Below, piece after piece: positions 16,393 to 19,048 of a DNA stretch of 32,000 nucleotides. A program made the position numbers and the translations under genes. A model generated the notes under the pieces. The model did not search any database and was not told where the DNA came from. It saw only the letters and a list, made by a program, of their open reading frames with translations. The stretch lies in the NCBI GenBank assembly GCA_964510585.1, contig CAZECW010000020.1:1-32000 (forward strand), read 5' to 3'. Within the stretch, counting starts at the first letter, position 1, and each line of letters begins with the position of its first letter. This stretch comes from an uncultured archaeon (GTDB lineage: Archaea > Asgardarchaeota > Jordiarchaeia > Jordiarchaeales > Jordiarchaeaceae).

Positions 16393-16635
16393 ATGCCCAG
16401 AAAAAAAAGCGAAACAATCATACCAGTCGCACCAATCGATAGACTGATCAGAAACGCCGGCGCGGAAAGAGTTTCAGAAGGTGGAGCTGCGGCACTAGCT
16501 AAAATTTTAGAAGAACTTGGGACAGAAATAGCACGACTAGCAGATGAGATGGCGAAGCACACTGGAAGAAAAACCATAAAAGAAGAAGACATCGACTTGG
16601 CATACAAAACATGGAAGAAAACAAAATTCCCATAA
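16393..16635 (+). CDS. Archaeal histone (HMf family) with short basic extensions
   Basis: PVAPIDRLIRNAGAERVS, AKHTGRKTIKEEDIDLA; GAGGA RBS. Confidence 0.97.
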   Translation: MPRKKSETIIPVAPIDRLIRNAGAERVSEGGAAALAKILEELGTEIARLADEMAKHTGRKTIKEEDIDLAYKTWKKTKFP

Positions 16636-16825: not shown

Positions 16826-19048
16826 TCATCTTGAAACTCGCAGCTCATACCGGAGTACATCGCCTAGGTTCTCAATCTCTGAAATATTGTAGATGCTGCC
16901 ACCACTTTTCTCCGCGATGCTTTGGCAAATCTTCTTCCGCCAATTCTTCATTAATGCATGGCTTTCTGGACGGATAACAACAGTGCGAATGTTTTCCTTT
17001 TTTATCAATTTAGCTATCTCTTCAATCTCGTATAGTAACTGATTGTAGGATTCCATCTCAGACCTCATCTGTTGAATGTAAGAGTAACGTCTTTCAGAAA
17101 AATTCCCGGCGTTTAGCGGCACATTTGCGCCCCCGTCACTAATAGTTACCAGGAAGGGTACTACCTTGTTATCTTTCATTTTCTCCCGTTTTAGTACCTC
17201 AAGTCCTTTGACCAGTCCCGCGGCTAGAGGAGTCCAGCTTCCAGATTTTACAGTTAGCAGTTTTGCAGTTACGGTTTGCAGGTTTACTGTGGGATATTGC
17301 ATTATTTCAGCGCTGTAGCCTTTAAATACCACTAGTCCCACGCGGTCCCTCTGTCGATAGGCTTCATCATGTAGGGAGAGTATCACCTGTTTGACTTTTT
17401 TTAGGTTTTTAAACATTGAGCCGCTGGCGTCAAGTACAAAGACTATGGAAAGTGGTGCGCGGTACTCAAATATTTTTTCGCGAATATCTTGTGTTCGTAT
17501 ATTTACTGCCAGATTTTTGTTTTTTCTATTTTTTTGGTAGGGCGAGGATGCCCTTATTGATGCATCCAATGCGATGTGCCTAGTTTTTTCCTTAGGGATT
17601 TTGTAGTAGATGTATCTTCCTTTGTCTGAGGAACCTTTTGCTTTTAGCCTCCTTCCCAGAAAGCTGGGTTCATCCTTTCTGAAGTAGCTTTTGTACTGCT
17701 GCCTAAAAAATTCCCCAAGAATGTTTGCCTTCTTGAGCTCTTCTATTTCTTCTTCTGTTAAGGCATCAAATCTTGGGTCTCTGATGTTTATCATTCCATC
17801 TCGGTCTTGGCCTTCTTGTTGCTGTGTATAACGGTTCAAAAGGTCTTGGTAGGGGATGTCCTGATTTGACGGAGCGGCTTGCATGCCTTCCTCAAATGAG
17901 ATGTTTTGAATATCTTTTCCTGAGGCGTCCTCACTTTTGTTTTGTTGTTGGCCATTCATTTCGGCGTCGTTACGAAAAAAACCCATGGCCTCTTGCTGTT
18001 TCACTTCGTTTAGTGTTTTTTCGAATGCTTCTGCTATCCTTTTGTTTACCGTTTCTGCATCTTCGAATTCAAATTTTCGAATTCTGTGACCCAGGGCTAA
18101 TTCCGCAGCCTTTAGCACATCTTGTTCGTTTACTTCTTTTCTACCGTCCAAGGCCGCTAATGCCTTGGCGCAGCGCATAACCGTTATATCCCCTCTATGG
18201 GTGCCTACCCCCAGCTCCAGACACAACCTCACAATGGTTACTAACAGGTACGTTGGTATTTTTACTTCTGGAAGAATTTCTTTGGCCTTCACTATCCTTT
18301 TCTGAAGATCCTCTTCTTCGCTCTGCCACTTCCTTAGAAACTCTTCCTGGTCTTTATCAAATTCTTGGATGCGGTTTAGTATCTCCAGTCTTTGTTTAAC
18401 ATCCTTGAGGGGGGTCACTTCTACCTGTAGGCCTATTCTGTCAAGTATTTGGGGTCTTAGTTCCCCCTCCTCCGGGTTCATACTTCCTACTAGCACGAAG
18501 CTTGAGGGATGGGATACAGATACACCTTCCCTTTCTACAGTGTTAACTCCAAAAGCTGCAGCGTCTAAAAGATCGTCCACTATATGGTCACTTAGAAGGT
18601 TAATCTCGTCTACGTATAGTATTTGTCGATTAGCTTCAGCCAATATGCCTGGCTCTAGAGCTTTAACTCCTTCCTTTATTGCCCTTTCAATGTCTAGAGA
18701 TCCCACAACTCTATCCTCTGTTACCCCTAGAGGAATTTCAACAACCCTCATCCTTCTTACTTCATATTCTAAGCTATTGTTTTCCTTTAATTTGGCTTTG
18801 CACATTTCACACATAGTTGATGGATTTGCAGGATCGCAGTTAAATGGACAATTCTTGACGAATTCTATTTCTGGCAATAATGCAGCTAATGCCCTTACTG
18901 CAGTAGATTTTCCTGTGCCTTTCTCTCCACGGATTAATACGCCGCCGATTTTAGGATCTATAACGTTTAAAATTAGACCGAGCTTCATATTAGTTTGGCC
19001 AACTATTGCTGTAAAGGGAAAAACTACTTTTTTATATCGAACAGACAT
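16826..19048 (-). CDS. chlD: ChlD-type chelatase subunit: ChlI-like AAA+ domain, linker, vWA domain
   Basis: [17 protein letters not shown] (Walker A), LYVDEINLL (Walker B), [10 protein letters not shown]; vWA DASGS MIDAS motif, TPLAAGL, ISDG. Confidence 0.92.
17970..17984 (-). other. Candidate programmed -1 frameshift / slippage site in chlD
   Basis: Minus strand ATG GGT TTT TTT CGT AAC contains in-frame heptamers G_GGU_UUU and U_UUU_UUU; the -1 frame reads TTT TTT TCG TAA. Confidence 0.55.

Follow-up and report, generated by a model that had tools for sequence, protein, structure and literature searches.

A run of seven T residues inside a chlD-type gene of an Asgard archaeon is probably a recoding site that would give rise to a ChlI-like product of ∼359-363 residues beside the full-length protein. 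The gene, here termed ChlID (P0001; minus strand, 16826..19048), lies in a 32,000-nucleotide stretch of DNA (referred to below as the window) from contig C20 (CAZECW010000020.1) of a 3.78-Mb, 96%-complete metagenome-assembled genome of Jordarchaeia (G000). Records of this group originate from hot springs and carry the labels Jordarchaeum or “Freyarchaeota.” Standard decoding of its 740 codons would yield a 740-residue ChlI-linker-VWA protein. It is proposed that some ribosomes or transcripts shift out of frame at the T-run and terminate within 1-5 codons, and that the protein so released, of 359 residues after a −1 change or 363 residues after a +1 change, would be a complete ChlI-like AAA+ ATPase. 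We infer the slippage itself, its direction, and the level at which it would occur (ribosome or RNA polymerase) from the sequence.

The T-run (T7; 17975..17981, minus strand) is situated 35 codons past the HR motif, at the boundary between the ChlI module and the linker. As set out in a preliminary description of this DNA and confirmed here from the sequence, codons 355-360 read ATG GGT TTT TTT CGT AAC on the minus strand and hold two overlapping in-phase heptamers: T_TTT_TTT (17981-17975), the proposed slip site, and G_GGT_TTT (17984-17978). A −1 slip would be followed by a single codon (TCG) and the stop codon TAA (17970..17972), giving a 359-residue product that ends in AMGFFS. The +1 frame also closes, at a TGA (17956..17958) five codons after the run, such that the 363-residue product would end in AMGFF followed by VTTPK. 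A Shine-Dalgarno-like GAGG (17989..17992) stands 8 nucleotides upstream of the first TTT codon, and the run is directly followed by CGT (17972..17974), an arginine codon that is rare in the genome.

Nucleotide-level conservation was assessed with the DNA of 15 orthologues, representing 11 lineages of Jordarchaeia at 78-92% amino acid identity; a metagenome scan contributed one additional locus. Where the residue is identical, 45-60% of codons differ between the main lineages. All 15 orthologues have the gene in a single frame, and T7 is invariant in every one of them, all reading G[G/A]T TTT TTT CG[A/T] AA[T/C]. Pairwise synonymous differences, observed versus expected, were scanned over 721 segments of 9 codons. 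The segment GFFRNDAEM (codons 356-364) ranked first of the 721, with 20 synonymous differences observed against 158 expected, and the same place also ranked first at segment sizes of 3, 5, and 15 codons. For the GFF codons, the corresponding values were 0 and 56. Because the site had been named before the constraint scan, the rank constitutes a fair test. The block under synonymous constraint spans 26 nucleotides (17956..17981, minus strand), and extends from the initial T of the run to the final base of the +1 stop. Among the 16 fully conserved phenylalanine columns, a fixed codon was found only at F357 and F358, and at the second FF of the same gene (447/448) TTT and TTC interchange freely. 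A fixed codon occurs in only 23 of 301 conserved degenerate columns.

The stops in the other two frames are likewise kept. A −1 stop lies 1-2 codons past the run in all 15 orthologues, as TAA, TGA, or TAG: TCG TAA in the lineage of the window, TCG AAA TGA in most others, and TCG AAA TAG in a lineage with an Asp-to-Ser replacement. The sole lineage without the −1 TGA is the one that has gained the TAA. As a background, only 7 of the 512 positions of the alignment show a −1 stop within 2 codons across all 11 lineages. No orthologue has lost the +1 stop five codons past the run (TGA, TGA, and TAA where the codon is ATG, GTG, and ATA, respectively, with Met-to-Val and Met-to-Ile replacements), although +1 stops as near as 5 codons in every lineage are common, at 88 of 512 positions. 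On this comparative evidence, the site is more than a chance occurrence, because T7 is invariant, the constrained segment ranks first, F357 and F358 have fixed codons, and a comparably conserved −1 stop is infrequent. The conservation beyond amino acid constraint for which the preliminary description had proposed a check is thus present.

Other elements around the run were also compared. A purine-rich AGGA/GAGG lies 7-10 nucleotides upstream of the run in all 11 lineages (as AGGA or AGGAGG outside the lineage of the window); it falls within the codons of a conserved Q-E pair and shows only mild constraint. Enrichment of GGAGG-type motifs was seen ahead of start codons in G000, and the 3′ end of the 16 S rRNA was not found in this assembly. 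The codon after the run is CGT in the lineage of the window and CGA in the other lineages of Jordarchaeia. In most orthologues (L009-L049), the block after the run (17956-17974 of the window, minus strand) contains a direct repeat, two copies of CGAAATGA with an 11-nucleotide period, which is the source of both TGAs; the repeat was rejected as an essential element because its first copy is degenerate in the lineage of the window. Two further candidates for the origin of the constraint were considered. An antisense open reading frame (ORF) at 17824-18180 on the plus strand is unlikely to be an overlapping gene because constraint is confined to a 9-codon island and is not gene-long. An internal start at the conserved ATG (M364) was rejected, the codon being ATA in L049 and GTG in L045 and L048.

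Codon usage in G000 also bears on the possibility that the site has no function at the nucleotide level, in which case FFR would be a peptide motif and the T-run, the CGN codon, and the stops would reflect shared ancestry together with the density of off-frame stops in AT-rich DNA. FFR is indeed conserved as protein in several clades, and off-frame stops of the +1 type are common, as noted above. This explanation is nevertheless very improbable: every other conserved phenylalanine column toggles between TTT and TTC, few of the conserved columns have a fixed codon, and the constrained segment ranks first in the scan. Furthermore, in the module of locus L009, TTT is used at only 1 of the 9 other phenylalanine codons, and the arginine codon expected after the run is AGR and not CGN. 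TTT accounts for 55% of phenylalanine codons in G000, and T_TTT_TTT is found at 58 of 1844 FF dipeptides where ∼96 would be expected from codon frequencies, such that the heptamer is under-used. AGR codons make up 70% of arginine codons, and the three least used sense codons in G000 are CGG, CGA, and CGT (2.9-4.0 per 1000); CGT and CGA, at 3.9-4.0 per 1000, are the second and third rarest of the 61.

The preliminary description had reported no strong 3′ hairpin, and this observation holds. A stimulatory RNA structure downstream of the run was not found, either in the 90 nucleotides that follow it (z-score of +0.43) or by consensus folding of the orthologues with alifold, a result that speaks against recoding. 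The consensus fold instead contained a weak hairpin that includes the run itself (−6.6 kcal/mol) and shows no covariation. Two other pairings were rejected as stimulators: a GGCCAU/AUGGCC hairpin in the window (z-score of −1.78) is not conserved outside the window's own lineage, and a GACGCC...GGCGTC pairing present in some orthologues is missing in others and in the window.

To place the site in a wider family, 400 Asgard genomes were scanned and the ChlID junctions fetched. Six Asgard clades have TTT TTT CGN, with T6 or T7, at ∼30 codons past the HR motif of their AAA lid, and in five of the six T-run clades the run is directly followed by CGN. At five loci from three families (L029, L030, L056, L079, and L080), the gene is split at the run. 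In these, the first frame (ORF1) stops 2-6 codons after FFR, and the frame of the VWA part (ORF2) is open in +1 across the run for >417 codons, whereas the −1 frame closes in 9-15 codons. The +1 frame of L056, FF-VQREGKYVL, can be aligned from the residue after FF onward with FF-RREGEKYVL, the sequence of its in-frame siblings, and the change of frame is therefore located at the run. In a tree of the ChlI module, T-run genes of the split form and of the in-frame form are intermingled within a single clade (support of 99/88). An independent in-frame T7 gene (L089) has a −1 stop after 2 codons and a +1 stop after 5. The ORF1 products of the split relatives extend 35-38 residues past the HR motif, as compared with 38-43 for the short product proposed here.

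Runs of other kinds were also seen in the survey. Among Asgard ChlID genes, those with an A9-A11 run come in two forms that are close sisters on the tree (L058 versus L068; L073-L075 versus L076-L077): split, with ORF2 in the −1 frame as in classical frameshifted chlD genes (referred to below as fs-chlD), and in frame. In the in-frame A9-A11 genes (L068, L076, L077, and L031), both other frames reach a stop within 0-6 codons. Family f12 (L033, L034, and L069-L071) consists of in-frame genes of 820-870 residues with an in-phase A6-A7 run (A_AAA_AAA in ARKKVK), and two of these genes also have an in-phase T6/T7 (RFFG) further on; the positions concerned are about 24 and 66 codons past the HR motif. 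Among the f9 orthologues (L015-L018; 40-47% identical), an in-phase T_TTA_AAA (in GPLK) is found 42 codons past the HR motif in 4 of 5 sequences.

The split relatives help to weigh two further explanations. In the first, the block would act as a programmed translational pause at a domain boundary, imposed by slow decoding of TTT TTT and the rare CGN, or as a binding site for an RNA or protein regulator, with no second product. The rare CGN is conserved across clades, the block lies exactly between two domains, and the weak local hairpin contains the run, all of which would suit such a role. A pause, however, would need neither a fixed T ahead of the two TTT codons (the final base of the Gly or Asp codon) nor stops in the off-frames, the GAA and GAC codons of the block are not rare, and the split relatives indicate a change of frame at the run; the hairpin, for its part, lacks covariation and is not conserved beyond the window's own lineage. 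We regard a pause or binding site as unlikely on balance.

In the second, T7 would be an intragenic archaeal transcription terminator or attenuator that tunes the amount of full-length mRNA or leaves a shortened transcript covering the ChlI part. In the in vitro experiments at high temperature described in PMC2253867, runs of 5-6 T bring about efficient termination by archaeal RNA polymerase, the host comes from hot springs, and sense-strand runs of at least seven T are 6.7 times rarer than those of at least seven A in the long ORFs of G000 (175 versus 1175). Termination would, however, leave unexplained the near stops in both frames, the rare CGN, and the constraint that continues for 19 nucleotides past the T-run; a truncated message would also be without a stop codon, and in the split relatives the run stands just before the ORF1 stop, where it is the junction to ORF2. 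A terminator or attenuator seems slightly less probable than a pause.

The short product that recoding would release was compared with known ChlI proteins. The ChlI-like AAA+ module comprises residues 1-347 of ChlID (18008..19048, minus strand), as defined by structure alignment and a match to TIGR02030. Residues 5-347 match two solved ChlI/BchI chains from end to end, at residues 11-352 of 365 in 6l8d and residues 18-349 of 350 in 1g8p. The TIGR02030 (ChlI) match covers residues 10-345 with a score of 453 bits, below the cut-off of 467. The best model for the whole protein was TIGR02442 (“putative cobaltochelatase”; 667 bits, below the cut-off of 779), and the score with TIGR02031 (ChlD) was 399, below the cut-off of 500. 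By the NCBI thresholds, the 740-residue protein is accordingly classed by sequence as related to, but not an equivalog of, the ChlI and ChlD families. Pfam domains AAA_lid_2, AAA_5, Mg_chelatase, and VWA were found in the protein, and the translation contains a Walker A motif (GEKGTGKST) together with the AAA lid in its N-terminal ChlI-type module. The VWA domain (residues 535-730; 16859..17446, minus strand; Pfam VWA/VWA_2), which would be present only in the full-length product, carries the DxSxS of the metal ion-dependent adhesion site type as DASGS. For the linker between the ChlI module and the VWA domain, no family match was found. The predicted short product takes in the whole ChlI fold and is in the length class of ORF1 of the split relatives, and it would presumably partner the long form in a joint assembly, as ChlI does ChlD.

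Three routes to the short product may be envisaged, all of which lead to the same biological outcome. In a +1 route, tRNA-Phe would slip in the P site from UUU to UUC with the rare CGN waiting in the A site, a re-pairing that the sequence TTT_C permits. In favor of this route are the continuation of the split relatives in +1, the presence of a rare CGN directly behind the run, and synonymous constraint that reaches no further 3′ than the +1 stop. In a −1 route, a tandem slip would take place on U_UUU_UUU; it is favored because the seventh T, the third base of a Gly or Asp codon, is fixed and the −1 stop is well kept, and the purine-rich AGGA/GAGG upstream may add a little weight. In the third route, RNA polymerase would add or drop a U, which would explain why both off-frame stops are kept.

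The preliminary description had proposed a variant resembling dnaX, with the long form made by default and the short form on a slip. This remains the best reading because conservation at the nucleotide level is evident and no standalone chlI was found. Its choice of a −1 tandem slip as the mechanism is not placed first here: given the +1 junction of the split relatives, the rare CGN, and the end of the constraint at the +1 stop, a +1 shift, shifts in both directions, or slippage of the polymerase appear at least as likely. In the fused genes, the run would have been lengthened to T7 and provided with stops in both other frames, and it would act in reverse, perhaps in both directions. Tentatively, and at somewhat less than even confidence, the site may be regarded as an old T-run recoding site whose polarity has flipped, in that the +1 change would build the long protein in the split genes and would release a ChlI-like ATPase in the fused ones; the site would then have stayed functional through changes of gene architecture. 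It would be the first recoding signal described in Asgard archaea, and would serve a ChlI/ChlD-type motor that operates with neither CobN nor ChlH as a partner.

Programmed frameshifting in chlD-type genes has been published (Antonov et al. 2013, PMC3711429; Atkins et al. 2016, PMC5009743; Kuznetsov et al. 2022, PMC9227772). In those cases the gene is divided between two overlapping ORFs, the short form being the product of ordinary decoding and the long form that of a −1 shift, and the slip site is A_AAA_AAR or a longer A-run with a downstream structure; known archaeal members include those of Methanocaldococcus and Methanococcus, and +1 cases are mentioned as rarer (PMC3711429, PMC5009743, PMC9227772). 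Archaeal chlD genes that are not frameshifted are treated as being without a signal (PMC9227772). The Jordarchaeia gene resembles fs-chlD in belonging to the same gene family (ChlI-like AAA+, linker, and VWA), in the position of its slip site at the ChlI/linker boundary, in the proposed supply of a small and a medium subunit from one gene, and in conservation of the site at the nucleotide level. In contrast to fs-chlD, it is a single in-frame ORF with the long form as the default product, its run is T7 followed by a rare CGN with both other frames stopping at once, and a downstream structure was not found. What is new relative to these published cases is therefore the in-frame polarity, the combination of a T-run with a rare codon, the closure of both frames, and an Asgard host in which the gene does not depend on CobN.

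Two other recoding systems provide further points of comparison. The dnaX gene gives τ and γ by a −1 frameshift in Escherichia coli and by transcriptional slippage in Thermus thermophilus. As in dnaX, the long product here would be standard, the short product would arise by a homopolymeric slip and end at a stop within one or a few codons, both products would share the AAA+ module, and a Shine-Dalgarno-like element lies upstream; the conserved pairing of an in-phase slippery site with a near stop in a shifted frame is found in all 11 lineages. The dnaX products work in one complex, and the same is proposed for the two ChlID products. The protein family is unrelated to DnaX, however, and the host is an Asgard archaeon; dnaX sites are A-rich, and that of E. 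coli has a strong 3′ hairpin, of which no counterpart was found here. The second system comprises +1 “hungry codon” sites, such as CUU_UGA in prfB and CUU_AGG_C in yeast Ty1. The likeness lies in a P-site codon that could re-pair one base forward (UUU_C to UUC) ahead of a very rare codon, and in the continuation of the split relatives of ChlID in the +1 frame. In contrast, shifting in prfB and Ty1 restores or extends the product, whereas a +1 shift in ChlID would truncate it, and a fixed seventh T and a conserved −1 stop would be needless for a pure +1 site.

As the preliminary description had stated, the window contains no chlI gene. Searches of G000 and of five further members of its genus (G001-G005, one of them a closed genome) likewise gave no standalone chlI. 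The third TIGR02030 match in G000 is a MoxR/DUF58 pair. G000 has two ChlID-type genes, the second of which encodes a protein of 683 residues that is 40% identical to that of the window and is located immediately downstream of the sole cobN in G000, on another contig (C90:30124-35978; the corresponding loci are L002, L004, and L055). The in-phase A_AAA_AAA of this cobN-linked paralogue was rejected as an analogous site, because it is not conserved (CCC AAA AAA in L051) and no −1 stop lies close by. The closed, 100%-complete genome G005 has a T7-bearing orthologue (C1:1094569-1096794; L010) and gave no match for cobN, the cobN-linked paralogue, or a standalone chlI. A link of the window's gene to cobalt chelatase is thus doubtful: the large CobN/ChlH subunit of such motors is usually encoded close by, whereas cobN in G000 stands beside the other paralogue, and G005 retains the gene without cobN. 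Because G005 keeps the orthologue, the gene of the window appears to be independent of a CobN partner, and the motor is not necessarily a CobN-type chelatase. Persistence of this ChlI/ChlD-type motor gene in a closed genome without cobN suggests that its function is probably other than the insertion of metal into tetrapyrroles.

Public RNA data, in the form of Logan contigs, were also inspected for runs X3, X1, X2, and X6. In one metatranscriptome, contigs of a ∼95% relative cover both sides of the site. No insertion or deletion was seen at the run, although such contigs cannot show rare species with six or eight U residues, transcript ends, or levels. A single metatranscriptome contig of a ∼95% relative (run X3) ends at 17954 on the minus strand, 2 bases past the +1 stop, and then continues into adapter letters, an anecdotal observation from one study.

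Besides the missing downstream structure, several points count against recoding. The short protein, the shifted peptide, and transcripts with six or eight U residues are predictions, and T7 is short for efficient slippage by a polymerase. FFR is conserved as amino acids too, so part of the sequence signal is at the protein level, and the strongly constrained orthologues all belong to one family-level clade and are not independent. The long form has an intact ChlI-like ATPase, and a free small subunit might not be needed. In addition, some of the split T6 genes may have a start of their own for ORF2, which makes an arrangement of two genes with no shift possible for them. With these points taken into account, release of a ChlI-like product from T7 remains the more probable account of the site.

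The surroundings of ChlID were also compared. Its neighbors include genes for a CofD-like protein, a Band 7 protein, a histone, and a geranylgeranyl reductase; they are conserved and offer no functional clue. The gene for the 80-residue archaeal histone (CBFD_NFYB_HMF; 16393-16635, plus strand) lies between the ChlID and geranylgeranyl reductase genes, and the order ChlID/histone/geranylgeranyl reductase is kept in all relatives fetched. ARAGORN recognized 6 tRNA genes in G000, several with introns; the majority of the tRNA genes may therefore be missing from the assembly or unconventional.

To a gene caller, ChlID is an unremarkable single ORF, and a second product would therefore escape notice. 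If the proposal is correct, programmed loss of frame would be the source of a small subunit where an in-frame chlD-type gene is all that a genome has; the small subunit missing from such genomes has been raised as a puzzle in the chelatase literature (PMC9227772). Recoding of the fs-chlD kind would then extend to a site made of a T-run and a rare codon, to a reversed polarity like that of dnaX, and to Asgard archaea. The interleaved split and fused genes with the same run offer a natural series on the survival of a frameshift signal through gene fusion and, if the site works as proposed, would illustrate how a programmed frameshift can reverse its polarity in the course of evolution.

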